Shown: positions 8,839 to 30,505, counted from the stretch's first letter. The stretch: 64,000 nt of DNA from an uncultured Chloroflexia bacterium (GCA_963712745.1 CAVQJC010000011.1:337241-401240); one strand, 5' to 3'. A program made the numbers and translations. The notes: generated by a model not told the origin, from the letters alone.

Positions 8839-10552
8839 CGCTAGAACAGGCCGACCGGGCGTCCCTGCTCGTCGATGTCGACGTTCTCACCGGCAGGACG
8901 GCTGGGCAGGCCCGGCATCGTGCGCATGTCGCCCGCGAGCGGGTAGATGAAGCCCGCGCCCGCGGCCAGCTTGACCTCGCGGATGGGCACCCGGAAGCCG
9001 GACGGCCGGCCCAGCAGCGCCGGATCGTGCGACATCGAGAGGTGGGTCTTGGCCATGCACACCGGCAGGTGGCTGTAGCCCAGCCGGTCGTACTCGGCCA
9101 GGGCCTTGGCCGCGGCCGGCGCGAGGTCGATGCCGTCGGCCCCATAGACCTTCGTGGCGATGGTCTCGATCTTCTCGAGCAGCGGCATCGCGTCGGGGTA
9201 GAGCAGCCTGAACTCGGACGGCTCGGACGCCGCCTCCCACACCGCCGCGGCCAGCGCTTCTGACCCGGCCCCGCCGTCGGCCCAGTGGGTGGTCACGACC
9301 GCATCGCGGGCGCCGGCTGCCAGCGCCACCTCGCGGATGACCTCGAACTCCGAGGCGGCGTCACCCGGGAAGGCGTTGATGGCCACCACCACCGGCACGC
9401 CGTACTGGCGCACCAGCTCGATCTGGGCGGCGAGGTTCTGGCCACCCGCGCGCACCGCCTCGGGGTCCTCCGCCAGCAGCGCCGGGTCGAGCGGCTTGCC
9501 GGCCACGATGCGACCCACGCCACCGTGCATCTTCAGGGCCCGCACCGTGGCCACCACCACCGCGGCATCGGGCGCCATGCCCGAGGCGCGGCACTTGATG
9601 TCGAAGAACTTCTCTGCCCCCATGTCCGCGCCGAAGCCGGCCTCGGTGACGACGATGTCGCTGGTCGCCAGGGCGACCCGGTCGGCGAGGATGGAGCTGT
9701 TGCCATGGGCGATGTTGGCGAAGGGCCCGGCATGGACGAAGGCCGGCCCGCCCTCGAGGGTCTGCAGCAGGTTGGGCTTGATGGCATCGAGCAGGAGCAC
9801 GGTCATGGCCCCGGCCACGCCCAGGTCCTCGGTCGTGACCGCTTTCCCCGACCGGTCGGTGGCGAGCACGATGCGACCCAGCCGCGCGCGCAGGTCGAAG
9901 ACGTCGGTGGCGAGGGCCAGGATGGCCATGACCTCGCTGGCCACGGTGATGACGAACTCGCTCTCGCGCGGCACCCCGTTGACCTTGCCGCCGAGGCCGA
10001 TGTTGACCTTGCGCAGGGCGCGGTCGCTGATGTCGACCACCCGCGGCCAGGTGATCGAATAGGGGTCGATGTCGAGCGGATCGCCATGGTGGAGGCTGTT
10101 GTCGAGGAAGGCGCTCGCGAGGTTGTGCGCGGCGCCGATGGCGTGCACGTCACCGGTGAGGTGGAGGTTGAAGTCCTCCATGGGGATGATCTGCGAATAG
10201 CCGCCGCCGGCGGCCCCGCCCTTGATGCCGAAGACCGGGCCCAGCGAGGGCTGGCGGATGGCGACCGCGGCCGTGTGGCCGATGCGGTTGAGACCCTGCA
10301 CCACACCGACGGTGGTGGTGGTCTTGCCCTCGCCCAGCGGGGTCGGCGTGATGGCGGTCATGACCACGTACCGGCCGCGCGGGTTCTCGCGCTCGACACG
10401 TCTGAGCCCCTCGAGCGTGACCTTGGCCTTGGTCGCGCCGTAGGGTTCGATCTCATCGGGCCGCAGCCCGAGCTCGGCAGCGATGTCGGTGATGGGCCGG
10501 GGGGTGACCGAGCGGGCGATGTCGAGGTCGGTCAGGGCGGTCATGGATGGTC
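8839..10552. repeat. 1714-bp direct repeat, copy 1 (partner 38698-40411)
   Basis: Identical proteins and identical alternative-frame ORFs in the track. No mismatch found by eye, and the flanks diverge at 8838/38697 and 10553/40412. Confidence 0.92.
8841..10544 (-). CDS. fhs: Formate-tetrahydrofolate ligase (copy 1)
   Basis: TPTPLGEGKTT, GIKGGAAGGGYSQ, HAGPFANIAHG, TEAGFGADMGAEKF and MRTMPGL motifs. Confidence 0.97.
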   Translation of the reverse strand: MTALTDLDIARSVTPRPITDIAAELGLRPDEIEPYGATKAKVTLEGLRRVERENPRGRYVVMTAITPTPLGEGKTTTTVGVVQGLNRIGHTAAVAIRQPSLGPVFGIKGGAAGGGYSQIIPMEDFNLHLTGDVHAIGAAHNLASAFLDNSLHHGDPLDIDPYSITWPRVVDISDRALRKVNIGLGGKVNGVPRESEFVITVASEVMAILALATDVFDLRARLGRIVLATDRSGKAVTTEDLGVAGAMTVLLLDAIKPNLLQTLEGGPAFVHAGPFANIAHGNSSILADRVALATSDIVVTEAGFGADMGAEKFFDIKCRASGMAPDAAVVVATVRALKMHGGVGRIVAGKPLDPALLAEDPEAVRAGGQNLAAQIELVRQYGVPVVVAINAFPGDAASEFEVIREVALAAGARDAVVTTHWADGGAGSEALAAAVWEAASEPSEFRLLYPDAMPLLEKIETIATKVYGADGIDLAPAAAKALAEYDRLGYSHLPVCMAKTHLSMSHDPALLGRPSGFRVPIREVKLAAGAGFIYPLAGDMRTMPGLPSRPAGENVDIDEQGRPVGLF

Positions 10553-10581
10553 GTCCTCCTCGTCGTGTGATGGCGCCGGGC

Positions 10582-13374
10582 CTATGGGCCCGTCACCTTC
10601 GTGCTCACCGGCTTGTCATCACCATCGAGCTCGGCGGTGACGGACTCTGGCGGAGCAGCCGCCTTGGTGACCCGGGCAGCACACACCTTGTACTCCGCGG
10701 TCCGGGTGACGTCGTCGAAGACGTCGTTCGTGATGCGGTTCGTGGGCTGGTCGACGAAGTGGAATGGCATCCACAGCGCTCCGGGTCGGGTGCGTCGACC
10801 GACCTTGGCCCGCACTGTCACCTCCCCGCGGCGGGTCGCCACGGTGACGGCGTCAGCATCGGCCACGCCCAGCTCGGCGGCGTCATGCTCGTGCATCTCG
10901 ACGAAGTTGCGACGCTGCTTCTGGCGGATCGCTCCTACCTTCTGAGTCATGTTCCCGATGTTGTAGTTGTAGAGCGTCCGCCCGGTGGAGAGGATGTATG
11001 GGTACTCGTCGTCAGGCAGCTCCGCCGCGGGCCGGAAGCCGATCTCGTGGAATGCTCCGAGGCCCCGGGTGAAGGTGCCTTCATGGAGGAACGGTGTCCC
11101 GGCATGGTCGGCGGTCGGGCAGGGCCACTGCAGGCCGACCTCGTCGATGCGCTCGTAGCTCATGCCGGCGTAGCTCGGGGTCAAGCTCGCCATCTCATCG
11201 AAGATCTCGCCGGCGTGCCCGTATGACATGGGGTAGCCCATCGCCGTCGACATGAGGCAGAGGATCTCCCAGTCCGGCTTCGCCTGGCCCGGCGGGTCGA
11301 CGGCCTTGCGTACCCGCTGCACCCGCCGCTCGGTGTTGGTGAACGTCCCGTCCTTCTCGGCGAAGCTGGTCGCCGGGAAGACCACATCAGCCAACTTCGC
11401 GGTCTCGGTCATGAAGATCTCCTGGCACACCAGGAAGTCCAGTCTCTCGAGGTCGGCGATGACCTTCGCCTGATTGGGCTCCGACAGCACGGGATCCTCG
11501 CCGAACACGTAGAAGCCTCGCAGCACACCGTCGCCTGCGGCCTCGATGAAGTCAGGGATGCGGCCGCCTCTGTTGGTGGGAATCTCCACGCCCCACGCCT
11601 CTGCGAACTTGAGCCGCGCCACCTCGTCGGTGACCTTCTGGTAGCCGGGGAAGTCGCCGTGCATGGCGCCCATGTCACAGCCGCCCTGCACGTTGTTCTG
11701 CCCTCGCAGCGGGTTCACGCCGCTGGAAGGCTTGCCGATCTGGCCACACAGCATCGCTAGGTTCGCCAGGTTCTGCACGTTCTCGGTGCCGCAGGTGTGC
11801 TCGGTGATGCCGAGCGTGTAGAAGATGGCCGAGGGCTGTCCTTGTGCGTACGTCTCGGCGGCCCGCCTGATCAGATCGGCATCGACGTCGCACACCCTGG
11901 CCGCCTGCTCGACGCTATAGCCGTCGAGGTTGCCGCGGAAGGCGTCGAAGCCCTCGCAGCGGGACGCGATGAACTCGACGTCGTGCAGGCCCCGGTCGAG
12001 GATGTGGCGCATCATCGCGTTGACCAGCATGTTGTCGGTGCCGGGCTTGTGCTGGATGTGGATGGCGGCGTGCTCGGCCACCCAGGTGCGGCGCGGGTCA
12101 CACACGATCATCTTCGCCCCGCGCTTGAGTGCCTTCTTCATCTCGAGACCGATGATGGGATGCGCCTCGGTCGGATTCGACCCGATGATGAGCATCGTGT
12201 CGACATCCTTGATCTCGCCGATGGGATTGGTCATCGCCCCCGACCCGAACGAGCTGGCCAGCCCGGCCACGGACGGGGCGTGGCAGGTGGTGGCGCATTG
12301 GTCGACGTTGTTGGTAGCGCCGGCGGATCGGGCCATCTTCTGCAGGAGGTAGTTCTCCTCGTTGGTGCAGCGGCACGAGCTGAGGAAGGCCACGGCGTCC
12401 GGGCCATGTTCCCGGCGGATCTCCCGCAGCCGCCGGCCCGCCAGCTTCAGTGCCTCATCCCAGCTCGCTTCACGGAACTCACCGTTCTCCTTGATGAGCG
12501 GCGTCGTCAGCCGCTCGGGTGAGTGGATGTATTCGAACCCGAACTTGCCCTTGACGCATAGGTTGCCGTCGTTGGGCACACAGCCGACCGGGGAGGTCAC
12601 CCGCACGACACGGTTGGCCGACCTGTCGACATTCAGGTCCAGGACGCAGCCGACGCCACAGTACGGGCAGACCGTGCGAACCGACTCGAGGTCCTTGCAC
12701 TGACCCTTGCCCAGCGCTGCCCGCTCGTACATGGCCCCGGTCGGGCAGGTCGAGATGCACATGCCGCAGAGCACGCACGAGGTGTCATTCAAGGCCATGT
12801 CGAACGGCGTAGTCACCGCCGCCTGCGCGGCTCTCTGCGTGAACGTCAGCGCGCTGGCCATCACCACCTCGTCACAGATGCGCACGCAGCGGCCGCAAGT
12901 GATGCACAGCTGAGGGTCGAAGGCGATGGCTTCGTTGCCGGTGGTGAAGTTCGGGACGGCCGGATCTGGCTGGTACGATCCGAATGCGAACTGGTCGACC
13001 CCGTAGCGGTACGCGTAGTCCATCAGGGCGCACTCGCCGTTCTTGTCACACGTGGGGCAGCTGACCCGGTGGTCGCCGAGTATCAGCTCCAGCACCGACT
13101 CGCGCATCGACGCCAGTTCGTCGCTCTCGGTGCGAATGACCATGCCCTCCTCGATCTGGGTGGTACATGCCGTCGGCAGGCCGGGGTGACCATCGACCTC
13201 CACGATGCACAGCCGGCACGCCCCCACCGGCTTCAGTCGGGGATCGAAGCACAGGCGGGGTACGTCGATGCCGGCCGCAAGGGCGGCTTCCAGCACCGTC
13301 TCGCCTTCGGCGGCAGAGACCGGCTGGCCGTCGATGGTGAGGGTCACCGTACCCGGCGCTGTCGCTACGGCCAT
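10582..13374 (-). CDS. fdhA: Formate dehydrogenase alpha subunit (Mo/W-bisPGD, Cys form, N-terminal Fe-S domains)
   Basis: 2Fe-2S (GACRLC), HxxxCxxC, two 4Fe-4S motifs, CPYCGVGC, active-site CATTCHAPS, PLRGQNNVQG and FTNTERR. Confidence 0.93.
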   Translation of the reverse strand: MAVATAPGTVTLTIDGQPVSAAEGETVLEAALAAGIDVPRLCFDPRLKPVGACRLCIVEVDGHPGLPTACTTQIEEGMVIRTESDELASMRESVLELILGDHRVSCPTCDKNGECALMDYAYRYGVDQFAFGSYQPDPAVPNFTTGNEAIAFDPQLCITCGRCVRICDEVVMASALTFTQRAAQAAVTTPFDMALNDTSCVLCGMCISTCPTGAMYERAALGKGQCKDLESVRTVCPYCGVGCVLDLNVDRSANRVVRVTSPVGCVPNDGNLCVKGKFGFEYIHSPERLTTPLIKENGEFREASWDEALKLAGRRLREIRREHGPDAVAFLSSCRCTNEENYLLQKMARSAGATNNVDQCATTCHAPSVAGLASSFGSGAMTNPIGEIKDVDTMLIIGSNPTEAHPIIGLEMKKALKRGAKMIVCDPRRTWVAEHAAIHIQHKPGTDNMLVNAMMRHILDRGLHDVEFIASRCEGFDAFRGNLDGYSVEQAARVCDVDADLIRRAAETYAQGQPSAIFYTLGITEHTCGTENVQNLANLAMLCGQIGKPSSGVNPLRGQNNVQGGCDMGAMHGDFPGYQKVTDEVARLKFAEAWGVEIPTNRGGRIPDFIEAAGDGVLRGFYVFGEDPVLSEPNQAKVIADLERLDFLVCQEIFMTETAKLADVVFPATSFAEKDGTFTNTERRVQRVRKAVDPPGQAKPDWEILCLMSTAMGYPMSYGHAGEIFDEMASLTPSYAGMSYERIDEVGLQWPCPTADHAGTPFLHEGTFTRGLGAFHEIGFRPAAELPDDEYPYILSTGRTLYNYNIGNMTQKVGAIRQKQRRNFVEMHEHDAAELGVADADAVTVATRRGEVTVRAKVGRRTRPGALWMPFHFVDQPTNRITNDVFDDVTRTAEYKVCAARVTKAAAPPESVTAELDGDDKPVSTKVTGP

Positions 13375-15869: not shown

Positions 15870-16235
15870 ATGGGGTCGTCGACTGAGGCGTCGATGCTCG
15901 CTGCGCTCGAGCAGGCCGAGATGGCCGCTCGCGAGCGCCGGCTTGCCGCGTCCAGTGAGGCGGAGGCGGTCCTGTCCGCAGCGCAGGCGCGTGCGTCTGA
16001 GATCGGCGCGAGCGCGGGTCGACGTGTGGACGATGCCCTGGCCGACTTACGCCACTCGGCGGAAGCTGCGGCTGACGCGGCGATCGTGGATCTCGAACGG
16101 GTCGCGGCCAAGCGTGCAGGTGCGAGCACGAGCCGCGCACGGGACGATCGGGTCGTCGGGAGCGCTGTGGCCATGGTCGTCGCCCGCGTCCTTGGCGAAT
16201 TGTCCTCCGACCCCGACGACGGGGATCGAGCCTGA
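15870..16235 (+). CDS. A/V-type ATP synthase peripheral stalk subunit H/G-like
   Basis: Ala/Glu/Arg-rich helical ORF at the head of the ATPase operon; its stop overlaps the subunit I start. Confidence 0.6.
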   Translation: MGSSTEASMLAALEQAEMAARERRLAASSEAEAVLSAAQARASEIGASAGRRVDDALADLRHSAEAAADAAIVDLERVAAKRAGASTSRARDDRVVGSAVAMVVARVLGELSSDPDDGDRA

Positions 16236-18185
16236 TGCTCGTCCCCATGCGCCGCGTCGAGATCGTCGTCCCGCGCTCGACCGCGAGCGCCGCGCTGAAG
16301 CTGATACACCGCGCGGGCGCTGTGCACCTCGAGACCTTCGACCAGCTGGACGGGGCGCACCCAGGTATGTTCGTCATCCCGCACCTCGAAGACGGCAGCG
16401 AGGCATCCATCGAAGGCGACGGTCGCTTCAAGGAGCCGCTCGAGGAGGTCGCCAGACTGGGTGCGCTCATCGGCACCGTACCGGTGGGCCGTGATCGACT
16501 CGAGGTGGCGTGGGCGCTCGATGACGAGGCCCTGATCGCGGCCGCCGACCGATTGCGGCCCGTCCAGTCAGCGGCGGACAGGCTTACCGGCGAGCGAGTC
16601 CGTGCCGTCGCCGACCTCGAACGGATCGATTCCTACCGCCATATCATCGATGGCCTCTCGGGTGCCGTGGGCCACCTGCCGAGGCTCCGCGGCTACGCCG
16701 CGACCGGAATCATCGTGAGCACGCGACACCGCGCGCTCGTGGGGCTCATCAGCGAGGAGCTCGAAGCCATCACCGACGGTCGCTGCGAGGTCGATCTCGG
16801 CCGACCTCCTGGACCAGCGCACCGCCGCCGTCCTGCTCTATCCGGCTGCCAGGGCCGGTGAGGTCTCCGATGTCCTGGGCGGGCGGGAACTCGAGGAGGT
16901 CAGCCTGCCGGCCGATCTCCAGGGTGTGCCCTTCGACGAGCTAGGGCCCCGGATGGCGGTCGAGGTCGAGCGGCTCCGGGCGCTCATCGCCAAGCTCGAG
17001 GACCAGTTCGAGCATCTCGCGATCGAGCACCGGACCAACGTGTCGGCGCTGCGACTCGTCCTCAGTGACCGTGTGGCCGAGCACCACGAGCTGCACCGTG
17101 CCACGCACTCGGACCATCTCACCGTGTTCACCGGCTGGGTACCGGCCGCCGAGCTCGACGACCTCAGGAGGGAGCTGGCCGACGGCCTCGGGGAGCGCAT
17201 CCTCGTCATCGACCACGGGAAGGCGTCGGCGCCCGGGCAGGAACCGCCGGTGGCCGTCACCAACGGACCCATCTCACGAGCGTTCGAGCCGCTCTCGCGT
17301 TTCGCGGCCGTGCCGCGCTACGGGACCATCGACCCGACGCCGCTGCTGGCGCTGACCTTCCCGGCCTTCGTGGGCCTGATGATCGGCGACGCCGGCTACG
17401 GCCTGGTCATGCTGGCGCTCCTCGTCATCTTCCGGAGGCGCATGATGCGCTCACCACTGCTGCGCAAGGTCTGGCCCATCGGCCTCACGATGGCCCTCTC
17501 GACGATCTTCTTCGGTGTGCTCTTCGCAGAGGCCTTCGGCGAGACCGCCCGTCACGTCCTGCACGTCGAGCCCATCCTCTTCGACCGCGCCGAGCCCGAG
17601 TCGGCGATCATCATCATGCTCGTGATCGCCATCACCATCGGATTCGTCCAGGTCGGGCTGGGATTGGCGCTGGGCGTATGGAACGCCGCCCAGGTGGATC
17701 ACCGGCGTGAGGCTGTCGGGCGCGCGTCGCTCCTGCTCGGGCTCGTGACGGTCGTCATCATGATCGCCGCGACCGCCGGGCTCCTGCCGGGCGAGGTGAT
17801 CTTGATCGCCGTCGCAGCGCTCGTCGCCGCGGTCGTGATCGCGGGGCTGTCGATGGGTATCGCCGGGCCCGTCGAGATGCTGGGCGTCATGGGCAACGTG
17901 CTCTCGTACGCGCGGTTGATGGCCGTCGCCTTCGCGGGGGTCATGCTCGCGCTCGTTGCCGACGAGCTGGGTAGCCTCATGCCCAGCCTCATCTTCGGGA
18001 TCCTCGTGGCCATCGTGCTGCACTCGCTCAACCTGGCTCTGGGCGTCTTCGACGCCTCCGTCCAGGGGCTGCGACTGCACCTCGTCGAGTTCTTCACCAA
18101 GTTCGTCGAGCCGGGGGGTACGCCGTACGCGCCCTTCACCTCGGCGCTCGGAGTGAGCCATAGCGCTCAGGTAGATGGGAGGTAG
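16235..18185 (+). CDS. ntpI: A/V-type ATP synthase subunit I (a), with a +1 frameshift at ~16793
   Basis: MLVPMRRVEI N-terminus, GWVP, PRYGTIDPT, GLMIGDAGYG, NVLSYARLMA and LRLHLVEFFTKF. Removing G16793 joins the two ORFs. Confidence 0.88.
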
Positions 18186-18197
18186 CCAGAATGCTGG

Positions 18198-18410
18198 ATG
18201 AAGGAGCTGCACGAATCGATCGGCGCGGCACTCGCGATCGGGCTGAGCGCGCTGGGAACAGCCTGGGCTCAGGCCCGCATCGGCGCGGCCGGAGCCGGGG
18301 TATTGGCCGAGAAGCCGGAGATGCTCAATAGCATCTTCCTGATCCTGGTGTTGCCGGAGACGATCGTCATCCTCGGCTTCGTCGTGGCCGCCATGATCCT
18401 GCTCCTGTGA
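18198..18410 (+). CDS. ntpK: A/V-type ATP synthase proteolipid subunit K (c), single hairpin
   Basis: 70 aa with two hydrophobic helices, AQARIG and PETIV. Confidence 0.92.
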   Translation: MKELHESIGAALAIGLSALGTAWAQARIGAAGAGVLAEKPEMLNSIFLILVLPETIVILGFVVAAMILLL

Positions 18411-18413
18411 CAG

Positions 18414-19049
18414 GTGGTCGAGGACATCCTGATGGGGGTCGAAGGGATCATCGCGATCATCGAGCGTGAGGCAGACCAGGAAGCGAAACGGATCGTCGCG
18501 GACGCTGAGCGTCAGGCAGGCGAGATGATCGCCGGCGCTGAAGCCGAGGTGCAGGCCCAGGTCGAGGCGGCCATCGAGCGTCTTGGACCAGAGATCCGCG
18601 CCGCGTCCCAGCGCCGCATCAACGCCGTGCGCCTGCGCATCCTGGAGGATCGCGCGCGCGGCGACGCGGCCCGATTGACCGCGGTTTTCGACGCCGCGGA
18701 GGAGCAGGTCACGGCGATCGCGGGTGGGGCCGAACCAGCGCGCTGGTCATCCGCGCTGTCAGCGCTGTGCGTCGAATCGCTGCGCTCGATCGGCGAAGGT
18801 GCCTCGGTGAAGGTGCGCGCCCGAGACATCGATGTGGTCTCGAGCGTAGCCGCTACCTGGCACGCCGACGTCATGGCTCTCCCTGATGGCGACGAGCCGG
18901 GTCTCGTGGTCAGCTCGAGCGACGGTCGTATCGAGGTGGACGCGCGCCTGTCGGTCCGGCTGGGTCGGGCGCGGTCGCTGCTGGCCGAAGCGGTCGCGCA
19001 GCTGCTGCGCCTCGAGGTGGCGGACCAGGAGCAGGCATCGGCGGGGTAG
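18414..19049 (+). CDS. ntpE: A/V-type ATP synthase subunit E
   Basis: N-terminal coiled coil, GLVVSSSDGRIEVD and operon position. Start may be ATG 18432. Confidence 0.8.
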   Translation: MVEDILMGVEGIIAIIEREADQEAKRIVADAERQAGEMIAGAEAEVQAQVEAAIERLGPEIRAASQRRINAVRLRILEDRARGDAARLTAVFDAAEEQVTAIAGGAEPARWSSALSALCVESLRSIGEGASVKVRARDIDVVSSVAATWHADVMALPDGDEPGLVVSSSDGRIEVDARLSVRLGRARSLLAEAVAQLLRLEVADQEQASAG

Positions 19050-19052: not shown

Positions 19053-19961
19053 ATGGGCTACGACTACGGCAACGCCCGGATCGCGGCCAGGCGGGGCCAG
19101 CTGCTCGATCGGGCTGCCATCTCACGCCTCGGCGACTCCGCGACGGCCTCGGCGATGGTGGCGCAGCTGGAGCGTTCGGCGGACTGGGCGCCGATCCTGC
19201 GGCGGGTGGCGCCGCTCGGGACCGACGCCACCGCGGCCTTGGAGACCGCCATCGAGTTCCATCGCTCAGCCCGCCTCGGAGCGCTGCCACCGTTCTACGA
19301 CGGCCAGGACCGCCGCTTCGTCGAGACGCTCGTGCTGCCCCTGGACGCTGAGCGGGCGGTGGCCGTGCTGCGACGCCGACGTGCGGGAGAACCAGCCGAG
19401 GCGATCGCGACCAGCTCCGTGCCAGGCGCCCTGCTCGACGCATCCGCGCTCGCCGCGATGGCTCGCGCACCCGGCCCGGCAGCGGCCCTTCGCCCGCTCG
19501 TGGACCGGGGAGTCATCGCGCGTGCCGACGCGCTGCCGATCATCGCGGCCGAGGCTCGCGGGGCCCGCAGCGCCGAGGTGGAGTCGCTGTTGCTGGCGGC
19601 CATCGATCGCGCGCGCTGGGAACGAGTCAGCGTCGGCGGCGGCGAGGCCGCGGCGCTGCGTCGGCTGCTCGAGCACGAACAGGAAGCCCGGGAGGCGACC
19701 GTCGTCGAGCTCGGGAAGGCCGGTCCGACGCTGGCCACGATGCTGGACCGCACGACCCGCCTGGCCCGACTGGACACGCTTGGCGCGCTCGGTCGGCGCG
19801 ACCTCCTGGGCATCGGGGCCGTGGCGGGGTACGTGGCTGCGGTCGAGGCCCAGGCGATCCGCCTGCGCGCCATGGTCGCCAAGGTCCGGGCGCGCTGGAC
19901 GGCCGAGGACGCCACACCGTACCTGGCCCGGAACGAGAGGTCGACATGGCTCGTGTGGTGA
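19053..19961 (+). CDS. ntpC: A/V-type ATP synthase subunit C (d)
   Basis: YDYGNARIAARRGQLL N-terminal signature, C-terminal GYVAAVEAQAIRLR and operon position. Confidence 0.8.
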   Translation: MGYDYGNARIAARRGQLLDRAAISRLGDSATASAMVAQLERSADWAPILRRVAPLGTDATAALETAIEFHRSARLGALPPFYDGQDRRFVETLVLPLDAERAVAVLRRRRAGEPAEAIATSSVPGALLDASALAAMARAPGPAAALRPLVDRGVIARADALPIIAAEARGARSAEVESLLLAAIDRARWERVSVGGGEAAALRRLLEHEQEAREATVVELGKAGPTLATMLDRTTRLARLDTLGALGRRDLLGIGAVAGYVAAVEAQAIRLRAMVAKVRARWTAEDATPYLARNERSTWLVW

Positions 19962-20278
19962 TCCTCAGCGCCCCGGGTCAAGCCGACGGCTATCGCCTCG
20001 CCGGTTGCTCCACCGTCGTCGCGTCGCCCGGAGCTCAAGCTGCCGCGTCCCTGCGCCACCTTGCCGCAACCTCTGACATCGGCGTGCTGCTCGTCAGCGC
20101 CGACCTCTGGGCGAGCCTCGACGACCGCCTGCGAGGTGACGTCGAGCAGCTGGCCCGACCGGTGGTCATGCCCATCCCGGAGGGCGAACGCACGCCCGGG
20201 GCGGCTCGAGTGCAGCTGCTCGGCGAGATGTTCCAGCGGGCGATCGGCTTTCGCATCCAGATCAGCGGCGGAGAATGA
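19946..20278 (+). CDS. ntpF: A/V-type ATP synthase subunit F
   Basis: ADGYRLAG, PVVMPIP and RAIGF motifs. Confidence 0.85.
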   Translation: MARVVILSAPGQADGYRLAGCSTVVASPGAQAAASLRHLAATSDIGVLLVSADLWASLDDRLRGDVEQLARPVVMPIPEGERTPGAARVQLLGEMFQRAIGFRIQISGGE

Positions 20279-23200
20279 TGAGCGACGAGCGTGCTCGCGG
20301 GACGGACGGAGCGGCGATCGTCGCCGCCAGCGGCCCGGTAGTGCGCGCGCGCATCCCGGCCTCGGCGGTCATCGGCGAGGTCGCGCGCGTGGGTCCGCAG
20401 CGACTGCTTGCCGAGGTCATCCATGTCGACGGCGAGGTCGGCACGCTCCAGGTCTACGAGGAGACCCAGGGGTTGCGCATCGGGGATCCGGTGTACCTGA
20501 GCGGCGCGCCCCTCGTCGCGTGGCTGGGTCCCGGCATGCTGGGACGGGTCTACGACGGGCTGCAGCGACCTCTCGATGCCTTCGCCGCGGCGGGCATCTG
20601 GCTGCTCCTGCCGGGAGCCACCGCGGATCCCGCGCGTGACGGCGCGTCGGGCAGGGACGCCACGCCCGCCGCGGTCGCTCTCGGCGACGCTCGCTGGGAC
20701 TTCCGTCCGACCGCGCAGCCGGGCCAGACCGTCGGTCCCGGCGACATCATCGGCGAGGTGACCGAGGGCGGCCTGCGTCACGCGGTGACCGTGCCGCCGG
20801 GGGTCGGCCCCGGCCGCTTGAGCGCGCTCGATGCGGGCGCCTACACCGTGCACGATGAGATCGGCAGCCTCGATGGGTCCTCGGGTCCGGTCGCGCTTCG
20901 GCTGGCCCATCCGTGGCCGCTCCGGTCGGCCCGCCCGGTAGCACGACACCTGCCCCTGGACCGTCCGCTGGTGACCGGCCAGCGCGTGATCGACATGCTG
21001 TATCCGGTCGCGCGCGGCGGCACGGCCGTCATCCCGGGCGGGTTCGGCACCGGCAAGACCGTCGTGGAACAGCAGCTCGCCCGCTGGTCCGACGCCGACG
21101 TCGTCGTGTATGTCGGCTGCGGAGAGCGTGGCAACGAGATGGCCGAGCTCCTCACGACGTTCCCAGAGCTCCAGGATCCACGCTCGGGCGTGCCCCTGCT
21201 CGAGCGAACTGTCCTGATCGCCAACACCTCGAACATGCCTGTGGCCGCACGCGAGGCCTCGGTCCAGCTGGGCATGACGATCGCTGAGTACTTCCGTGAC
21301 CAGGGACTGCACGTCGCGTTGCTCACCGACTCCACCTCGCGCTGGGCTGAGGCGCTGCGAGAGATCAGCGGACGGCTCGAGGAGCTGCCGGGAGAGGAGG
21401 GCTTCCCGGCCTACCTGGGCAGCCGGCTGGCGAGATTCTACGAGCGCACCGGTCAGGTCGAAACGCTCGGCGAGCCTGCACGCACGGGTTCGGTGACACT
21501 CGTCGCCGCGGTCTCGCCACCGGGCGGCGACTTCTCCGAGCCTGTGACCCAGGCGAGCCTGCGCCTGGCGGGCACGTTCTGGGCGCTAGACCCGGAGCTG
21601 GCACACGCACGTCACTTCCCTGCCATCGGCTGGGACCGGTCCTACTCGCTGTACGTCGATGCACTCGCGGCCTGGTATGCCGATACGCTGGACCTCGGTT
21701 GGTGGGAACTCCGCTCGACCGCGGTGGAGCTGCTGGCGCGTGAGAAGGGGCTGCTCGATATCGTTGCGCTCGTCGGCGCCGACGCCTTGCCCGACCATGA
21801 TCGTGCGCTGTTGGAGGTTGCGCGCCTGCTGCGTGAGTCGTTCCTCCAGCAGGGCGCATTCGATCCGGTCGATTCGGCCCGCCCGCTCGACGAGCAGGTG
21901 CTTCTGCTGGACGCGGTGCTCGCGGCTCAGGGGTACCTGGATCGTGCCCTCGACGCCGGCGAGACCCTCGAAGCTGCCCTCTCGTCCAAGGCCATCGCCG
22001 ATCTGCGGCGCGCCAAGGAGCTCAGTGGCCTTGACGTCGCGGGGCGACTCGCCGCCCTCGCCGCCCGCCTGCGCGAAGACGGGAACGCGGCGACCCAAGA
22101 CCTCGCCAGTGACGGAGGGGAGGGTGGCGCTGCGGCTGGCGAGGATGCCGATGTCACGACGCAGCCCGAGCCCCCGGCTCCGGCCGACGGCGCCGCTCCG
22201 GGCACCGAGCACCCAGCGGATGTACCGGAGCCAGAGCCTACGCATCGGGGTGAAGCGCGTGCCGACGCGATGCCTCGGCAGCTGTCAGCCCGAAGTGGTC
22301 CCGCGTCCGCCGTCAGGTCACTCTCGGAGCACCGCCTGACCGGGGCTGATCGTCTCGTAGGCCCACTGCTCGTGCTGCGCCGGTCGCCACGCATGGCACT
22401 CGGCGAGGACGTCACCGTGCGCGCCGGTGACGGCACGCTTCGGCATGGGCAGATCGCCGAGCTCGACGAGGACGTCGCCGTCATCCAGGTCTACGAGGGT
22501 ACCGCTGGGCTGGACCTCGAGTCTGCCCAGGTGCAGCTCTCCGGCGACACGTTCCGGCTGGGCGTCTCGGGCGCCATGCTCGGCCGGGTGCTCGACGGGC
22601 GTGGCCGCCCCATCGACGACGGCCCGTCGATCGTGCCGCTGCGGCTCGCGGACGTGAACGGCGGCGCCATCAACCCGGCGTCGCGCGATCACCCGGAGGA
22701 CTTCATCGAAACCGGCATCAGCACGATCGACCTGATGGCCTCGCTCGTGTGCGGTCAGAAGCTGCCGATCTTCACCGGCTCCGGCTTGCCGGCCAACGAG
22801 CTGGCCGCCCGCATCGCGACCGGTGCGCGCATGCTGGGCGAAGAGCGCTTCGTGACGGTCTTCGCGGCCATGGGCATCACGCGCCGTGAAGCGGACGGGT
22901 TCCGTGACGCCTTCGCCAGCTCCGGCGTGCTCGACCGCATCGCGGTGTTCCTCAATCTCGCTGACGACCCGGCCATCGAGCGACTCCTGACACCCCGCTG
23001 TGCCCTGACGCTTGCCGAGCATCTCGCCTTCGAGCTCGGGCTCAATGTCCTCGTCGTGATGACCGATGTGCTCGCCTACGGCGAGGCGCTGCGCGAACTG
23101 TCGACCGCGCGCGAGGAGATCCCCGGTCGCCGAGGCTACCCGGGCTACCTGTATACCGATCTCGCGACGTTGTTCGAGCGTGCCGGCCGCGTCCGTGGCC

Positions 23201-23745
23201 TGCCGGGCTCGGTCACAGTGCTACCGATCGTGACGCTCCCCGACGATGACATCACCCACCCCATCCCCGACCTCACCGGGTACATCACCGAGGGCCAGAT
23301 CGTGCTCTCACGTGAGCTGTGGGGCCGATCGATCGCACCGCCTGTCGACGTCCTGCCCTGCCTCTCGCGCGTCATGAACGCGGGCATCGGCGAAGGCCAG
23401 ACGCGTCCGGAGCATCGGATCGTAGCGGATCAGCTCTACGCTGCCTATGCGCACGGCCGCTCGCTGCGGCAGCTCGTGACGGTCATCGGAGAGGCTGCGC
23501 TGAGCGACAGCGAGCGCGGCGTTCTGGCGTTCGCAGATGCCTTCGAGCATCGACTCGTCAGCCAGGGACGTGAGCGACGAACCCTCGACGAGTCATTCGA
23601 CGCCGCCTGGGCCATCCTGCTTGAGTTGCCCGACGAGCAGCTCACCCGCATCCCGGCCAACGTCCTTGCCCGCCGCCGGGCCAGCCGAGCACGCAGCGCT
23701 GCGAGCGAGGACCATACCGATCCGCCAGCGAGTCCGGCGCCGTGA
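20275..23745 (+). CDS. ntpAB: A/V-type ATP synthase subunits A and B in one ORF
   Basis: A part: GGFGTGKT, GCGERGNEM, NTSNMPVAAREAS, EEGFPAYL. Then an ~85-aa Pro/acidic linker. B part: GQKLPIF, PGRRGYPGY, DDITHPIPDLTGYITEGQ. Confidence 0.88.
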   Translation: MMSDERARGTDGAAIVAASGPVVRARIPASAVIGEVARVGPQRLLAEVIHVDGEVGTLQVYEETQGLRIGDPVYLSGAPLVAWLGPGMLGRVYDGLQRPLDAFAAAGIWLLLPGATADPARDGASGRDATPAAVALGDARWDFRPTAQPGQTVGPGDIIGEVTEGGLRHAVTVPPGVGPGRLSALDAGAYTVHDEIGSLDGSSGPVALRLAHPWPLRSARPVARHLPLDRPLVTGQRVIDMLYPVARGGTAVIPGGFGTGKTVVEQQLARWSDADVVVYVGCGERGNEMAELLTTFPELQDPRSGVPLLERTVLIANTSNMPVAAREASVQLGMTIAEYFRDQGLHVALLTDSTSRWAEALREISGRLEELPGEEGFPAYLGSRLARFYERTGQVETLGEPARTGSVTLVAAVSPPGGDFSEPVTQASLRLAGTFWALDPELAHARHFPAIGWDRSYSLYVDALAAWYADTLDLGWWELRSTAVELLAREKGLLDIVALVGADALPDHDRALLEVARLLRESFLQQGAFDPVDSARPLDEQVLLLDAVLAAQGYLDRALDAGETLEAALSSKAIADLRRAKELSGLDVAGRLAALAARLREDGNAATQDLASDGGEGGAAAGEDADVTTQPEPPAPADGAAPGTEHPADVPEPEPTHRGEARADAMPRQLSARSGPASAVRSLSEHRLTGADRLVGPLLVLRRSPRMALGEDVTVRAGDGTLRHGQIAELDEDVAVIQVYEGTAGLDLESAQVQLSGDTFRLGVSGAMLGRVLDGRGRPIDDGPSIVPLRLADVNGGAINPASRDHPEDFIETGISTIDLMASLVCGQKLPIFTGSGLPANELAARIATGARMLGEERFVTVFAAMGITRREADGFRDAFASSGVLDRIAVFLNLADDPAIERLLTPRCALTLAEHLAFELGLNVLVVMTDVLAYGEALRELSTAREEIPGRRGYPGYLYTDLATLFERAGRVRGLPGSVTVLPIVTLPDDDITHPIPDLTGYITEGQIVLSRELWGRSIAPPVDVLPCLSRVMNAGIGEGQTRPEHRIVADQLYAAYAHGRSLRQLVTVIGEAALSDSERGVLAFADAFEHRLVSQGRERRTLDESFDAAWAILLELPDEQLTRIPANVLARRRASRARSAASEDHTDPPASPAP

Positions 23746-24380
23746 CACGCCCGCGGACGCGGATGGAGTTGCTCGCGGTGCGATCACGCCTCGACCTGGC
23801 GAGGCAGGGCCGGGATCTCCTGGAGCAGAAGCGAGACGCGCTCATGCACGAGTTCTATCGTGAGGTGCGGACCGTCTACGCAGCCCACGAGGAGCTCGAG
23901 GTGGCCGCTGGCGCAGCCCGGCACGCGCTCGAAGAGGCGCGCGTGCTCCTGGGCACGGACACCATCTCTGCGGCCGCGACCGAGGCAGTCGGCGAGATCA
24001 ACGTGGATGTACAGCTGGTGACGGTGATGGGCGTGCATGTCCCGGCCGTCAGTTCGCGCGACCTGGTGCGCACCCCGGCCGATCGCGGCCGTGCGCCGGC
24101 GGTGTCCGGCCCGGCGCTCGAGATGGCGGCGGAGGCGCACGAGCACGAGATCACCGTCGCGATCAAGGTGGCCTCGCTGGAGGCGCGCGCGCGTCGGCTG
24201 GCTCGCGAGATCCGGCGCACTTCCAGCCGTGTCAATGCCCTCCGAACGAGGGTCATCCCACACCTCGAGGCGGAGATGAGGGCGATCTCGCTGGCACTCG
24301 AGCAACACGAGCGTGACGACCGCTTCCGGCTGAAGCGGGTGAAGTCGCGGCGCGATCCGACCAAGGCCAAGATCCGGTAG
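23742..24380 (+). CDS. ntpD: A/V-type ATP synthase subunit D
   Basis: TRMELL, GRDLLEQKRDAL, RRTSSRVNAL and RFRLKRVK. Confidence 0.92.
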   Translation: MTRPRTRMELLAVRSRLDLARQGRDLLEQKRDALMHEFYREVRTVYAAHEELEVAAGAARHALEEARVLLGTDTISAAATEAVGEINVDVQLVTVMGVHVPAVSSRDLVRTPADRGRAPAVSGPALEMAAEAHEHEITVAIKVASLEARARRLAREIRRTSSRVNALRTRVIPHLEAEMRAISLALEQHERDDRFRLKRVKSRRDPTKAKIR

Positions 24381-25275: not shown

Positions 25276-25541
25276 CGGCTGCGTGCCTCCTGCTCCCACA
25301 TGCCTCGACGCCTACATCAACATCCACCCGATGTCACTCCGCTCTTCCCGATGGGTCAAGTGCCGGAAGTCATCGCGAGCCCACACCATTGAGTATCGGC
25401 CGGGGGCGATCGGTTTCGAACTCTGGGTCCTTTGGGCTGTCCACGCAGGGTCATAGGGTCCTTGTTCTTCTCGCCAGTCGTGTTTACGTAAGCCTTGGGT
25501 CACTGGCGGCTCGGTTCGCTGGCCCGATATCGGAGGCGAAG

Positions 25542-26327
25542 ATGAAGATCGCCGTCTCCGGCAAAGGTGGTGCCGGAAAGACCACTCTCGCGGCGCTCGC
25601 TGTCGCCGAGTTGCTACGGCGCGGTGTCAGCGTGACCGCGATCGACGCGGATCCGAACCCGTCCCTGGCGCCCTGCCTCGGCATCTCGGCAACGCCCACC
25701 CCGCTGCTGGAGATGTCCGACGAGATCGAGGCACGGGTCGGCAGCGGCGTGATCCGCCTCAACCCCCGTGTCGACGACCTCGTGGAGCGCCTCGCGGTCA
25801 CCCAGGATGGCCTGCAGCTCATGGTGGCCGGCGGCCCCGTCCGTGGTGGCGCGGGCTGCGCCTGTCCGCAGAGCGTGCTGCTGCGCCAGCTGCTGGAGCA
25901 CGTCGTGGTGGGCCTGGAAGAGGCGGTCGTCATCGACCTCGAAGCCGGCCTCGAGCATCTGGGACGACGAACCGCGCACGCAGCGGACGCGCTTCTCGTC
26001 GTCGTCGACCCAACCAACTCCAGCGTCGAGACCGCGCAGCGCATCGCGCGGCTTGCCGCTGATATCGATCTCCGTCGCGTGGCCCTGGTCGCCAACCGCA
26101 TCGTCGATCCCAGCGACCTCGCATTCATCAAGGAACGGCTGCCCGGGCTCGAGCTGGTCGGGGAGATCCCCTTCAGTCAAGAGATCCTGGTGGCCGAGCG
26201 AGATCGACGGCCACTCCTCGACCTCGGCGGACCCGCCGCTGCGGCGGTAGCCCAGATGCTTGATGCCCTGGCTGCCGACGTGCCCATACCAGCTGCAACC
26301 GAATCCCCCGAAGAGGTGACATCGTGA
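25542..26327 (+). CDS. cooC: CO dehydrogenase nickel-insertion ATPase
   Basis: MKIAVSGKGGAGKTT, DADP, GCACP and DLEAGLEHLGR. Confidence 0.92.
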   Translation: MKIAVSGKGGAGKTTLAALAVAELLRRGVSVTAIDADPNPSLAPCLGISATPTPLLEMSDEIEARVGSGVIRLNPRVDDLVERLAVTQDGLQLMVAGGPVRGGAGCACPQSVLLRQLLEHVVVGLEEAVVIDLEAGLEHLGRRTAHAADALLVVVDPTNSSVETAQRIARLAADIDLRRVALVANRIVDPSDLAFIKERLPGLELVGEIPFSQEILVAERDRRPLLDLGGPAAAAVAQMLDALAADVPIPAATESPEEVTS

Positions 26328-28288
26328 ACGAGCCGCAAGCCCCCATTCCGCGCACCGACCCCGCCAGCGTGGAGATGCGAGAGCGCGCCAAGGCAGAGGG
26401 CGTGGAGACGATCTGGGATCGCTACGCCGCCCTCGGCACGCAGTGCAAGGTCGGCGAGCTGGGTATCTGCTGCACGGTCTGCCACCTGGGGCCCTGCAAC
26501 CTGGGTCTCCCGGGGAGCAGGCGGCCACAGGTCGGAGTCTGCGGAGCGACGATCCACACCGTTGCCTCCCGTCGCCTCGCCCGCGACATGGCTGCTGGTT
26601 CCGCGGCCCACTCCGATCACGGTCGCTCCGTCGCCTCGCTACTGCTGCAGGCCGCACGTGGAGAGGCACCGGGCTACGAGATCAAGGATGAGGCCAAGCT
26701 GGATTCCCTGGCCGACGAGCTGGGCATCGAGCGCGAGGGCAAGTCGGTCGAGCAGGTCGCCGAAGCGGTGGCACTGGGTTGCCTCGCCCAGTTCGGGGCG
26801 CAGGAGGATGGCGTTACCTTCATCCGACGCGCCCCGCAGAAGCAGCAGGAGGACTGGAAGAAGCTGGACATCACGCCCCGGGGCATCGACCGTGAGATCG
26901 TCGACGTCATGCATCGCACCAACATGGGAGTCGACGCCGACTACAAGTCCATGATCCTCGGCGGCATGCGCAGTACGCTGGCGGACGGCTGGGGCGGTTC
27001 GATGATCGCGACCGACCTTCAGGACGTCCTCTTCGGCACGCCCAAGCCAGTCCGGGCCGATGTCAACCTCGGTGTCCTCAGCGAGGACGAGGTCAACATC
27101 CTCCTGCACGGGCATGAGCCGGCGCTGGCCGAGGCCATCGTCGACGTGGCCAACGACCCGGCCATGCAGGAGAAGGCCACGGAAGTGGGCGCCAGCGGCA
27201 TCAACATCGCAGGCATCTGCTGCACCGCCAACGAGGTCCTGATGCGGCGGGGCCTGCCCATCGCCGGCAACTTCCTGCAGCAGGAGCTGGCCATCACCAC
27301 CGGGGCCGTGGAGTCGATCCTCATCGACGTCCAGTGCATCATGCCCGGGGTAACGCAGGCTGCCGGCTGCTTCCACACCGACGTCATCGCCACCTCCGAA
27401 CAGGCCTTCTACCCGGGCACGATCCACATCGGCTTCGAGGCCGAGAGCGCCTACGAGGACGCCCGCAAGATCGTAGGTCGAGCCGTCGACAACTTCGTCA
27501 ACCGCGACAAGAGCCGCGTCAGCATCCCCCATCACACCATGGACGTGGTGGCCGGCTTCACGACCGAGTCGATCAACCGGGAGCTGGGCGGTAGGTACCG
27601 GGGTGGCTACCGCCCCCTCAACGACGGCATCATGGCCGGGCGCATCCGGGGCGTGGCCGCGGTGGTCGGGTGCGATTCGCCCAAGATCACCCAGGATCAG
27701 GGTCACCTCGACCTCGTCCTCGAGCTCATCCGGCGTGACATCCTGGTGGCCCAGACGGGCTGCTCGGCCATCGTGTGCGGCAAGGCCGGCCTCCTCCGGC
27801 CCGAGGCCGCCATGGAATACGCCGGCCGCGGCCTCCAGGAGATCTGCGAGGCCGTGGGCATCCCGCCTGTGCTCCACGTCGGCTCCTGCGTCGACAACAG
27901 CCGTCTCCTGACGGTCTGCACGCAGATGGTCAATGAGGGCGGCGTGGGCAAGGACTTCACCGAGCTGCCGGTCGCCGCCGCCGCCCCCGGCTGGTGGTCG
28001 GAGAAGGCCATCGCCATCGGCTTCTACGCCGTGGCCTCCGGCCTCCTGACCGTGCTGGGGTCTCCGCTCAACATCCTCGGCAGCGACGCTGTGACGCAGT
28101 TCGTGACCAAGGACCTCGAGGATCTTACCGGCGGTCGCTTCGCCTTCGAGCCCGATGCCGCTGCGGCGGCCGAGCTCATGGCCGCCCACATCGATCGCAA
28201 GCGGGAGGCACTCAAGCTGCGTCCCATGATGTACGAGCCCGTGCCGGTCGCCCCCGCTCCAGTCCAAGCACCCGTCGCAGCCGCCTGA
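26324..28288 (+). CDS. cooS: Anaerobic Ni,Fe CO dehydrogenase catalytic subunit
   Basis: D/B cluster Cys (QCKVGELGICCTVCHLGPC, VCGA). C-cluster ligands HGHEP, CCTANE, DVQC, VGC, TGCS and GSCVDN, plus SEKA. Confidence 0.96.
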   Translation: MNEPQAPIPRTDPASVEMRERAKAEGVETIWDRYAALGTQCKVGELGICCTVCHLGPCNLGLPGSRRPQVGVCGATIHTVASRRLARDMAAGSAAHSDHGRSVASLLLQAARGEAPGYEIKDEAKLDSLADELGIEREGKSVEQVAEAVALGCLAQFGAQEDGVTFIRRAPQKQQEDWKKLDITPRGIDREIVDVMHRTNMGVDADYKSMILGGMRSTLADGWGGSMIATDLQDVLFGTPKPVRADVNLGVLSEDEVNILLHGHEPALAEAIVDVANDPAMQEKATEVGASGINIAGICCTANEVLMRRGLPIAGNFLQQELAITTGAVESILIDVQCIMPGVTQAAGCFHTDVIATSEQAFYPGTIHIGFEAESAYEDARKIVGRAVDNFVNRDKSRVSIPHHTMDVVAGFTTESINRELGGRYRGGYRPLNDGIMAGRIRGVAAVVGCDSPKITQDQGHLDLVLELIRRDILVAQTGCSAIVCGKAGLLRPEAAMEYAGRGLQEICEAVGIPPVLHVGSCVDNSRLLTVCTQMVNEGGVGKDFTELPVAAAAPGWWSEKAIAIGFYAVASGLLTVLGSPLNILGSDAVTQFVTKDLEDLTGGRFAFEPDAAAAAELMAAHIDRKREALKLRPMMYEPVPVAPAPVQAPVAAA

Positions 28289-28320
28289 GCAGAGGTAGCG
28301 CCTGAGGAGAGGCAGGAGAG

Positions 28321-30505
28321 ATGTCTAGGATCATCGCCAGCGCCGCCATCCGCGGGGCGCATGAGTACGTCCAGGAGGCTGAAGACAGCCTTAACGCCAC
28401 CCTCGAATCGAGCGGCGGAGCGACGAAGCTGGAGTTCCCCAACACCGCCTTCTACCTGCCGCTGACCTATGCCCTGACCGGGCTGGACGTCAAGACCGTC
28501 GAGGAGGCCCGGGTTCCCCTGGGGATCGCCAGGGACCTGCTGGCGCCGGTCCCCAGCGATGAGACGTGGTTGCCCTATCTGGGTGACACCCTCGACTCAG
28601 GGATCGCGGCTCTCATCGCCGAAGAGATCATCGAGGCGCTGCGCTATGCCAACGGCTCGCCACCCAACGGCATCTACCTGGGCTTCACGGACGACTCCAT
28701 CCTGCGCACCCAGGGCATCAAGCTCGTTGATGGTCGGATGCCCGGGTTCGCGGCCTGTGTGGGCGCGATGCCCACCAATGAGGCGGCCGTGAAGCTGGCT
28801 CGCGAGCTGCAGGAGCGCAACATCCTGGCCTTCATCTCGAGCAGCAGCGATGGTCGCAGCATGGCCGAGCAGCTCGACGAGGAAGGCGTCGAGATGAGCT
28901 GGGACACCTACCTGGTGCCCTACGGCAAGGAGACCAGCACCACGGTCCACGCGCTCAACTTCGCGGCCCGCGCGGCCATGACGTTCGGCGGGCTGGCTCC
29001 GGGCGATCTGGCCAAGGCCCGCCGCATCCTGCTCTACAACAAGGAACGCGTCTTCGCCTTCGTGCTTGCGCTGGGCGAGGTCGACGACCGCAAGTACGCG
29101 ACTGCCGCGGGAGCCATCAACTTCGGGTTCCCGGTCATCGCGGACACGGACATCCCGGAGATCCTGCCCAGCGGCATCTGCACCTATGAGCACGTCGTCA
29201 GCAACGTCCCCGACGACCGGCTCGTCAACAAGGCCATCGAGGTCCGTGGCCTCAAGCTCAAGATCACCAAGATCCCCATCCCGGTCTCCTATAGCGCCGC
29301 CTTCGAGGGCGAGCGCGTCCGCAAGGAACAACTGCAGGTCGAGTTCGGCCGTGGCACACAGGCCTTCGAGTACCTGCGCGCTCGCGAGCTCGATGAGATC
29401 GAGGACGGGCATGTCGAGCTCATCGGACCCGACCTCGACACCGCGGAGCCGGGTGGAGCGATGCCGCTGGGCATCCTCATCGAGGTCGCCGGGCGCAAGC
29501 TGCAGAAGGACTTCGAGCCCATCCTCGAGCGCAACGTCCACCGTTTCATCAACGGCGCCATGGGCGTGATGCACATCGGCCAGCGCGACCAGCCCTGGAT
29601 CCGCATGTCGGACGAAGCCTTCAAGGCCGGCCTCCGGCTCCGCGACTTCGGGACCATCCTCCATGCCAAGTATCTCGAGGAGTTCCCGGCCATCGTCGAC
29701 AAGGTCTCGGTCACGCTCATCACGGAGCCCAGCCGCATCGATGAGGTTCTCGAGGGCGCGCGGGTGGTCTGGAACGAGCGCGATGCCCGTGTCGCCGGCA
29801 TGACCGACGAGACCATCGACATCTTCTACTCCTGCACGCTGTGCCAGTCATATGCACCCAACCACGTCTGCATCATCTCGCCCGAGCGCCTCGGACTGTG
29901 CGGCGCCTACAACTGGCTCGACGGCAAGGTCAGCCACGAGATCAACCCCAGCGGCCCCAACCAGCCGATCGAGAAGGGCGCCGTCCTCGACGAATCGCTG
30001 GGCATCTTCAAGAACATCAACGACTTCGTCTACGCCACCTCCAACAAGACGGTCGAGCAGGTCAGCCTCTACTCGATGATGACCGCGCCGATGACCTCAT
30101 GCGGCTGCTTCGAGTGCATCATGGGTGTCGCTCCCGAGGCCAATGGCGTGGTCGTGGTCAATCGCGAGTATCCCGACATCACGCCCCTGGGCATGTCGCT
30201 TCAGCACCCTGGCCGGGCTGGTCGGCGGTGGCATCCAGACCCCGGGCTTCCTGGGTGTCGGGCGGCTCTACCTGGCGAGTCACAAGTTCATTCCCGCCGA
30301 CGGCGGGCTGGAACGCCTCGTCTGGATGCCCAAGGAGCTCAAGGACGACCTGCGCGACAAGCTCGAGGAGCGCGCGGTCGAGATCGGCGACGAGGCCTTC
30401 GTCGACAAGATCGGCGATGAGACCGTCGCTACCACGGCCGAGGAGCTGGTGGCGTTCCTCGAGAAGGTCGGACATCCGGCCCTCAAGATGCCATCGATCC
30501 TCTGA
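28321..30505 (+). CDS. acsB: Acetyl-CoA synthase (bacterial type), with a +1 frameshift at ~30199
   Basis: FPNTAFYLP, CTLCQSYAPNHVC, LCGA and PMTSCGCFEC. The C-terminus (FSTLAG..GGGIQTPGF..WMPKELK) continues in another frame to 30505. Confidence 0.93.

Follow-up and report, generated by a model that had tools for sequence, protein, structure and literature searches.

A rotary ATPase operon of an uncultured Chloroflexia bacterium encodes the catalytic subunit A and the non-catalytic subunit B of its V/A-type head in a single gene. The gene lies in a stretch of 64,000 nucleotides (GCA_963712745.1, CAVQJC010000011.1:337241-401240), hereafter the window, in which one open reading frame (ORF; 20275..23745, + strand) runs from subunit A through a long tether into subunit B. 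Independent contigs cross the junction without gaps and close homologues carry the same arrangement, confirming the A-B fusion as genuine and inherited at the DNA level.

One reading frame for two head subunits

The ORF opens with ATG and encodes 1156 residues with zero internal stops, both in the ORF listing and on translation. Two NCBIfam models divide the protein between them: NF003220 (V-type subunit A) matches residues 13-599 (model 5-576 of 588; 808.6 bits against a cut-off of 470) and NF003235 (subunit B) matches residues 688-1135 (model 6-455 of 462; 767.8 bits against a cut-off of 349). Pfam finds two ATP-synt_ab domain sets. The A part holds the A-specific Xtn 'bulge' (PF16886, residues 138-217, E 8.7e-15) and PF00006 (residues 235-458), and the B part PF02874 (residues 695-748) and PF22919 (residues 1037-1131). 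These matches confirm the initial annotation, which had described a stop-free 1156-aa ORF with complete A, a linker and complete B. The linker it had placed at ~22075-22325 agrees with nucleotides 22081-22326, encoding residues 603-684, where the predicted local confidence (pLDDT) of AlphaFold2 is below 50 (Table 1).

The P-loop GxxxxGKT and the GERGNE catalytic loop are functional motifs of subunit A. The A part carries GGFGTGKT (Walker-A-like) at residues 255-262 and GCGERGNEM at 281-289, and G255, G258, G260, K261, T262 and G283-E288 are invariant in alignments of 21 and 17 fused-length sequences. At the P-loop position of the B part stands FTGSGLPAN, which has no Lys; the sequence of this position, PIFTGSGLPANELA, contains no GK[ST]. 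A degenerate P-loop without the Walker-A lysine is typical of subunit B.

The usual 'A' proteins of ~1000-1130 aa are intein-bearing A subunits, which dominate the long matches in both of our protein searches. Such VMA-type proteins are similar to the fused protein in total length, but they contain PF14890 and PF14528 inside A, whereas the window's protein has a whole B instead. Both intein domains occur in long matches such as P0155 and P0164. Neither PF14890 nor PF14528 was found in it by Pfam at E values up to 0.01, hence an intein does not explain its length.

The junction in independent assemblies

A single insertion or deletion (indel) that removed the stop of A and put B in frame could produce such an ORF as an assembly or sequencing artefact. 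Frame-breaking differences do occur in this assembly, since a 1-nt insertion near 16792 breaks the gene for subunit I in the same operon. Moreover, a change of 1-2 nt would suffice to fuse split genes at an ATGA overlap such as that of the split relative L110. The initial annotation had cautioned against indels in the window; this caution is borne out for subunit I but not for the junction. The out-of-frame TGA at 22110 and the in-frame ATG at 22270, on which its concern had centred, are both present.

We aligned Logan contigs from four public runs (X1-X4; four studies of estuary, sediment and marine sediment metagenomes) on positions 21500-22900. Gap-free pieces cover 21984-22192, 22025-22175, 22105-22261, 22131-22281, 22252-22402, 22368-22560 and 22393-22610. 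Together they tile 21984-22610 with zero gaps, zero insertions or deletions listed and 0-2 differing letters per piece, and no stop is restored after A. Taken together, the pieces rule out an undetected indel anywhere from the end of A to the start of B. An artefact is also contradicted by ten other copies or clusters from other assemblies, which are fused with differing tether lengths, by the absence of the ancestral start Met of B from fused forms, and by a tether of 59-82 aa where the seven closest split relatives have an A tail of 9-52 aa. We therefore regard it as a very improbable explanation.

Other fused copies

A word-index protein search restricted to lengths of 635-2023 aa, with clustering at 90% identity, returned eight full-length fused clusters (P0003-P0008, P0011 and P0012) from ENA, JGI and Logan assemblies. 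Their proteins are 1133-1190 aa long and 67-82% identical. Four partial clusters look like further members (P0009, P0010, P0013 and P0016), of which P0013 (residues 424-1151) reads across the junction. Within the window's own genus, a genome of another species (G006) matches residues 250-1156 without a stop, its contig ending there, and a further one (G049) matches only the first 194 residues at a contig edge. Two JGI contigs, L136 and L141, each carry AB as a single ORF (1154 and 1141 aa) that overlaps the genes for subunits F and D by 4 nt. Since their tether sequences show them to be the DNA of P0006 and P0007 or near-copies, they are not counted as extra members. The close homologues are thus fused rather than split: in the window, G006, L136, L141 and the eight further full-length clusters there is no stop between A and B, and subunit A is not encoded as a polypeptide of its own.

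In scans of metagenomes a junction peptide gave 596 pattern matches and no relatives, and the degenerate clade pattern GA(D/E)RLVGPLL gave 15 stretches, two of them real (L136 and L141) and 13 due to chance. As a census of A-B fusions, a library of representatives at 50% identity was hardly informative: the whole fused clade collapses to one partial representative, P0013 (720 aa). Seven other long matches in this library comprise three intein-bearing B subunits, one E-B fusion, one chimera of a tubulin-cofactor domain with B and two N-terminally extended B subunits. In P0181 (710 aa), a fusion of a stalk with a head subunit, subunit E (PF01991, residues 18-213) is joined to a complete subunit B.

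Fused-length A-B proteins with short linkers of 10-21 aa also exist (P0014, P0017, P0018/P0021, P0020, P0025/P0026 and P0030; 1044-1064 aa). We did not accept them as firm proof of widespread A-B fusion; they branch singly among split relatives (Planctomycetota, Clostridia and Gemmatimonadota), and we distrust them partly because linkers of this length could hardly span the head as its geometry is generally described. They may be separate fusions, sequencing errors or cases of stop-codon read-through; the Trp at the P0025/P0026 junction could, at a guess, stand for a TGA codon that is read through. Obvious out-of-frame stretches led us to reject four more long proteins (P0028, P0037, P0050 and P0067) as fusions.

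Split relatives and the origin of the fusion

We sampled 401 genomes of the class with a stricter first look, so that the counts are lower bounds. At least 11 of the 401 hold the ATPase, all in the window's family: at least 10 of 137 there, the window's genome excluded, against none of 263 in four other families under the same strict first look. A detailed reading of nine of these ten relatives showed all nine to be split, with A ending at TGA after 569-633 residues and B in another frame. Long overlaps between A and B matches in these relatives, considered as overlapping genes or as a frameshift site, were rejected when the frames were read: the A genes end at ordinary TGA stops, and the overlaps appear because of low-complexity matches in open GC-rich frames.

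The closest split type is represented by seven loci (L108-L114), in which A is 59-64% and B 64-73% identical to the fused form. These operons represent the ancestral two-gene state: they share a clade with the fused forms in both trees and the N terminus of their B is homologous, but A ends at TGA and B has its own frame and start Met. Past its last conserved helix, A ends in a low-complexity Pro/Ala/Gly/acidic tail of 9-52 aa. The start of B comes directly after the stop of A in split relatives, and at the one junction read at base level, that of L110, the TGA of A overlaps the ATG of B (ATGA). Two further loci, L116 and L117 (in G204 and G415), together with P0030, represent another and deeply diverged type of V/A-ATPase, which occurs in other genera of the family and is ~44-47% identical to the window's protein.

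One genome, G101 (L115 and L132), was examined as a possible fused copy with a 1434-aa open frame and was set aside. Its frame changes at least four times, a stop separates A from B and a long tether is missing. The frame changes in L132 (G101:C1:1566000-1580000, ~7760-10910) fall within 3.1 kb of a genome that is 95% complete in two contigs; they reflect either an error-rich long-read assembly or a decayed operon. Among 80 loci of other species in the genome collection, 74 are split, five are cut by a contig end (L026, L056, L062, L064 and L102), one (L043) is unclassifiable and none is fused.

In a maximum-likelihood tree built from the A parts (105 rows; LG+G4 with a quick search) the nine fused rows group together with an SH-aLRT of 97. 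They nest in a larger clade (100) that also takes in the seven closest split sequences of the family and is itself sister (99) to a Gemmatimonadota group. In the tree of B (91 rows), nine of the ten fused rows, including G006, form one clade (100), and P0012 lies in an unresolved fork beside it. The tree of A indicates that the fused forms share one origin, with which the tree of B is compatible. With close homologues fused and more distant relatives split, fusion is a derived, clade-specific trait nested among split relatives.

The low-complexity tail of A in the split relatives is possible raw material for the tether, which probably arose from it. The simplest path to fusion would begin with an A that had a disordered tail and abutted or overlapped B. 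A change of 1-2 nt could then have removed the stop and merged the frames, after which the start Met of B would have been lost and the tether would have stayed or become long.

A tether nearly free in sequence but constant in frame

By alignment anchors the tether of the window's protein is 81 aa long and consists of 48% Pro/Ala/Gly, 20% Asp/Glu, 6% Lys/Arg and 7% bulky hydrophobic residues. Across nine full-length fused proteins its length is 81, 69, 63, 78, 71, 62, 59, 67 and 81 aa, and that of G006 exceeds the window's by ~1 residue, the two differing by 3 nt in total length. Among members the tethers are too dissimilar in sequence to align, yet A and B are in one frame in every case. Between the window and G006 the tether is 23% identical in amino acids and 49% in nucleotides, whereas identity reaches 88% in the A part and 92% in the B part. 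Measured against G006, the ratio of nonsynonymous to synonymous substitution (dN/dS; Nei-Gojobori) comes to 0.16 in A and 0.08 in B; the value for the tether, 0.59, is saturated and rough. The A and B halves are under strong purifying selection and the sequence of the tether is nearly free. What has been kept is the presence of the tether, its composition, its range of lengths and its reading frame, through many changes of length. Retention of the frame across many tether lengths is expected if the two halves must be co-translated and unexpected if B is made alone.

In the fused forms B has also lost its start. In the split relatives L110, L111 and L114, B begins with M(T/R)LS..R...GPL. The homologous stretch of the fused forms reads ..(S/A)LS.HRL.GADRLVGPLL. 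In G006 and the nine full-length proteins the former Met is replaced by one of the residues R, A, T, G and D.

A fused ORF could nevertheless yield separate A and B, by an internal start or by cleavage of the tether, and so build an ordinary A3B3 head. Candidate starts are at hand: the ATG at 22270, 24 codons before the conserved start of B, is the sole start-like codon among the last 60 tether codons of the window, and ATG, GTG or TTG codons occur in the same region of G006, L136 and L141, with TTG following a GGGAGA- or GGGGA-like run in L136 and L141. Disordered linkers are, moreover, typical protease targets. However, these codons lie at different places in the four DNA-level copies, none of them being positionally conserved, and Met is absent from the whole tether in seven of the nine full-length proteins. 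As the initial annotation had remarked, the ATG at 22270 lacks a clear Shine-Dalgarno sequence; no such run lies within 10 nt of it. Separate products would also leave the retention of one frame through about nine tether lengths without a reason, and the composition of the tether appears similar to that of Pro/Ala-rich linkers between domains that persist in other enzymes, such as those of 2-oxoacid dehydrogenase E2 chains. We consider separate products unlikely.

Structure prediction and a proposed head

AlphaFold2, run on a 17-sequence alignment, folds both halves of the fused monomer (mean pLDDT 72.6, predicted TM-score (pTM) 0.77). Residues 603-684 have no secondary structure, and the means of 10-residue blocks over 611-680 fall to pLDDT 22-27. 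The best Foldseek matches of the A half are the structures from Enterococcus hirae (3vr4_A) and Thermus thermophilus (7vai_A), with a TM-score on the target of 0.84-0.87; over the A subunits of both species the values are E ~1e-55 and 0.84-0.88. None of the 50 matches listed by Foldseek is a solved structure that spans both halves (TM-score on the query 0.44-0.46).

In the head of V/A-ATPases the C terminus of A lies at the membrane-near end and the N-terminal barrel of B at the far end, ~80-100 Å apart. The contour length of a Pro-rich chain of 59-82 residues is ~220-310 Å, which can cover this distance. The merged gene would most likely be translated as one polypeptide of ~1150 aa. Three AB chains could then form an (AB)3 ring around the D/F shaft, equivalent to the usual A3B3 head, with each tether passing externally between the end of A that is C-terminal and close to the membrane and the N-terminal barrel of an adjacent B, which lies far from it. 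This matches the inference of the initial annotation, an (AB)3 head with a linker from the C-terminal to the N-terminal face. We infer that a single-chain AB protomer of this kind, trimerising around D/F with its tether outside the ring, is the probable form of the enzyme; such a head and tether path fit the length of the tether and its predicted disorder. The likely effect would be that A and B are held to a 1:1 stoichiometry and pair as they are translated or immediately afterwards.

A fuller version of the (AB)3 proposal, towards which we lean only slightly, adds a function for the tether. Selection would act on its minimum length, since it would have to reach around the exterior of the head, starting at the C terminus of A and ending at the N-terminal crown of B; the shortest tether in the clade has 59 residues by alignment anchors, compared with A tails of 9-52 in the seven closest split relatives. 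The tether would fix the pairing of A with B and allow co-translational assembly, and acidic tethers might dock or regulate beside the peripheral stalks.

Several observations weigh against a single-chain head. Codon usage gives translation of the tether no support: the GC content at third codon positions (GC3) is 0.69 in the tether against 0.85 in the folded domains. GC3 drops in the C-terminal tail of B as well (23704-23742), and the content at first positions (GC1) rises to 0.81-0.86. Such a composition may be characteristic of disordered segments that evolve fast in this GC-rich genome. The contigs that support the junction span only 151-218 nt each at a low depth of 2-4.4, and the source sample may be among the runs. 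Among the public sequencing runs found to hold the sequence none is an RNA run, and the support is at the DNA level. An exposed tether of 80 residues could be cut by proteases. The in-frame ATG of the window and the GTG or TTG codons in the tethers of other members, two of them behind purine-rich runs, mean that B may be separately initiated in single members. Finally, the frameshift in subunit I of this assembly may leave this copy of the machine dead, if the extra base is real.

Operon and genome context

The fused gene lies in a tightly packed operon of order G-I-c-E-C-F-[AB]-D (Table 1), compared with G-I-c/K-E-C-F-A-B-D in Thermus. Pfam identifies the rotor and stator partners I, c, E, C, F and D beside the fusion. 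The 4-nt overlaps between F and AB and between AB and D, together with the packing of the genes, fit the tight coupling that had been noted for the rest of the operon. The 121-aa ORF at its head is probably subunit G, mainly by its position before subunit I; its match to V-ATPase_G_2 is below threshold (Pfam; E 0.055, 14.5 bits, cut-off 28). The proteolipid c subunit (18198-18410) has a Gln in helix 1 and Pro-Glu-Thr in helix 2, which presumably resembles the Na+-binding signature of some rotary ATPases.

Table 1. Coordinates of the fused gene and its operon partners in the window
Feature	Coordinates	Strand	Basis and remarks
Candidate peripheral-stalk subunit G, 121 aa, Ala/Glu-rich	15870..16235	+	Mainly position before subunit I
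Subunit I (stator a-type)	16235..18185	+	Two frames, 16235-16861 and 16926-18185; PF01496 on the 419-aa C-part
c/K proteolipid subunit, 70 aa, one hairpin	18198..18410	+	PF00137, E 6.6e-17
Subunit E (peripheral stalk)	18414..19049	+	PF01991, E 1e-10
Subunit C/d (AC39 family)	19053..19961	+	PF01992, E 1.3e-10
Subunit F	19946..20278	+	PF01990, E 3e-9; stop overlaps AB start by 4 nt
A (catalytic) part of the fused ORF	20275..22080	+	Residues 1-602; NF003220, PF16886, PF00006
Tether, Pro/Ala/Gly/acidic, predicted disordered	22081..22326	+	Residues 603-684; AlphaFold2 pLDDT, composition
B (non-catalytic) part	22327..23745	+	Residues 685-1143, then a 13-aa low-complexity tail and stop; NF003235, PF02874, PF22919
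Subunit D (central rotor shaft)	23742..24380	+	PF01813, E 2e-43; GTG start overlaps AB stop by 4 nt

The frame of subunit I is broken by one extra base near 16792, as seen in a DNA alignment to G049 (87% amino acid identity). In relatives the gene is one uninterrupted frame of 635-783 aa, and it is intact in the fused-clade relatives G006, G049 and L141, that of L141 being a 649-aa ORF. The extra base may be an error of the assembly or else a recent mutation that disables the whole pump in this genome. The latter raises the prospect that the operon is decaying and that the fused gene is a functionless relic here, which would be compatible with a working single-chain head in the rest of the clade. 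The accessory nature of the operon (three of 49 genomes of the genus) and the F-type ATPase elsewhere in the genome would suit decay. Against it, the other genes of the operon are intact and tightly packed, A and B are under strong purifying selection relative to G006, the single extra base may be an assembly error and the fused clade keeps intact operons (L141). We judge decay to be improbable, somewhat more so than separate A and B products.

The source genome is a metagenome-assembled genome that is 84.6% complete with 5.0% contamination. Its F-type ATPase is represented by alpha and beta genes on contig C6 of G000 (L001 and L002). Given its patchy distribution, in three of 49 species genomes of the window's genus and thinly in the family, the V/A operon looks like an accessory second ATPase, possibly a mobile one. 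About 1 kb downstream of the operon, at 25389-30420, are genes for a CooC-like P-loop NTPase, for a member of the Prismane/CO-dehydrogenase family and for an acetyl-CoA synthase of beta type. The accessory ATPase may form part of an anaerobic module for CO and acetyl-CoA. Source records of the nearest split homologues give Chloroflexota, Candidatus Limnocylindrales or 'Chloroflexi bacterium', and the host family is probably an uncultured bacterial family of Chloroflexota.

Relation to known rotary ATPases

The fused protein is a variant of a known machine. It shares the A fold and domain order, at 43-46% identity, with the V/A-ATPase of Thermus thermophilus (6QUM, 7VAI and 3GQB) and the V1 of Enterococcus hirae (3VR2-3VR6), as well as the A bulge and the accessory set I, c/K, E, C, F and D. 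In those enzymes A and B are separate chains that form A3B3, whereas the window encodes one chain with a tether of ~82 residues predicted to be disordered. To our knowledge, and as far as our literature search shows, all rotary ATPases described so far (F, V, A and relatives) have their alternating catalytic and non-catalytic head subunits as separate chains.

Other subunits of rotary ATPases have merged. Duplications of the c subunit are known. Natural b-delta and delta-alpha fusions occur in F-type enzymes (10.64898/2026.10.01.756066), and the passages on fusions in that preprint, which treats the evolution of rotary ATPases, make no mention of an A-B or alpha-beta fusion. Unlike the window's gene, none of the b-delta and delta-alpha fusions, the c duplications or the E-B protein P0181 joins a catalytic to a non-catalytic head subunit. 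The ATP synthase passage of a paper on fusion proteins in Archaea concerns other complexes, and the word 'fused' did not turn up in our search of a 2023 preprint on ATP synthase evolution. Our full-text literature search found no natural or engineered A-B or alpha-beta fusion, although supplements, which lie outside it, may hold cases. The fused A-B head gene is new to the literature as searched.

The ecological significance is modest: a second ATPase beside the F-type, near genes for CO dehydrogenase and acetyl-CoA synthase, in bacteria of estuaries and sediments. For researchers on rotary motors and on the fusion of operon genes the interest is wider. If the single-chain reading is true, this would be the first natural rotary ATPase with covalently linked catalytic and non-catalytic subunits, and its head would tolerate a covalent link from the bottom of one subunit to the top of its neighbour. 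It would then be a natural test of A-B pairing and of the order of ring assembly, and a scaffold for defined asymmetric heads, for example with one, two or three mutated sites from concatenated genes. The clade also illustrates a route from operon neighbours to one gene: a stop and a start that abut or overlap, a tail that is already disordered, the disappearance of both stop and start Met, and then a tether that remains long.

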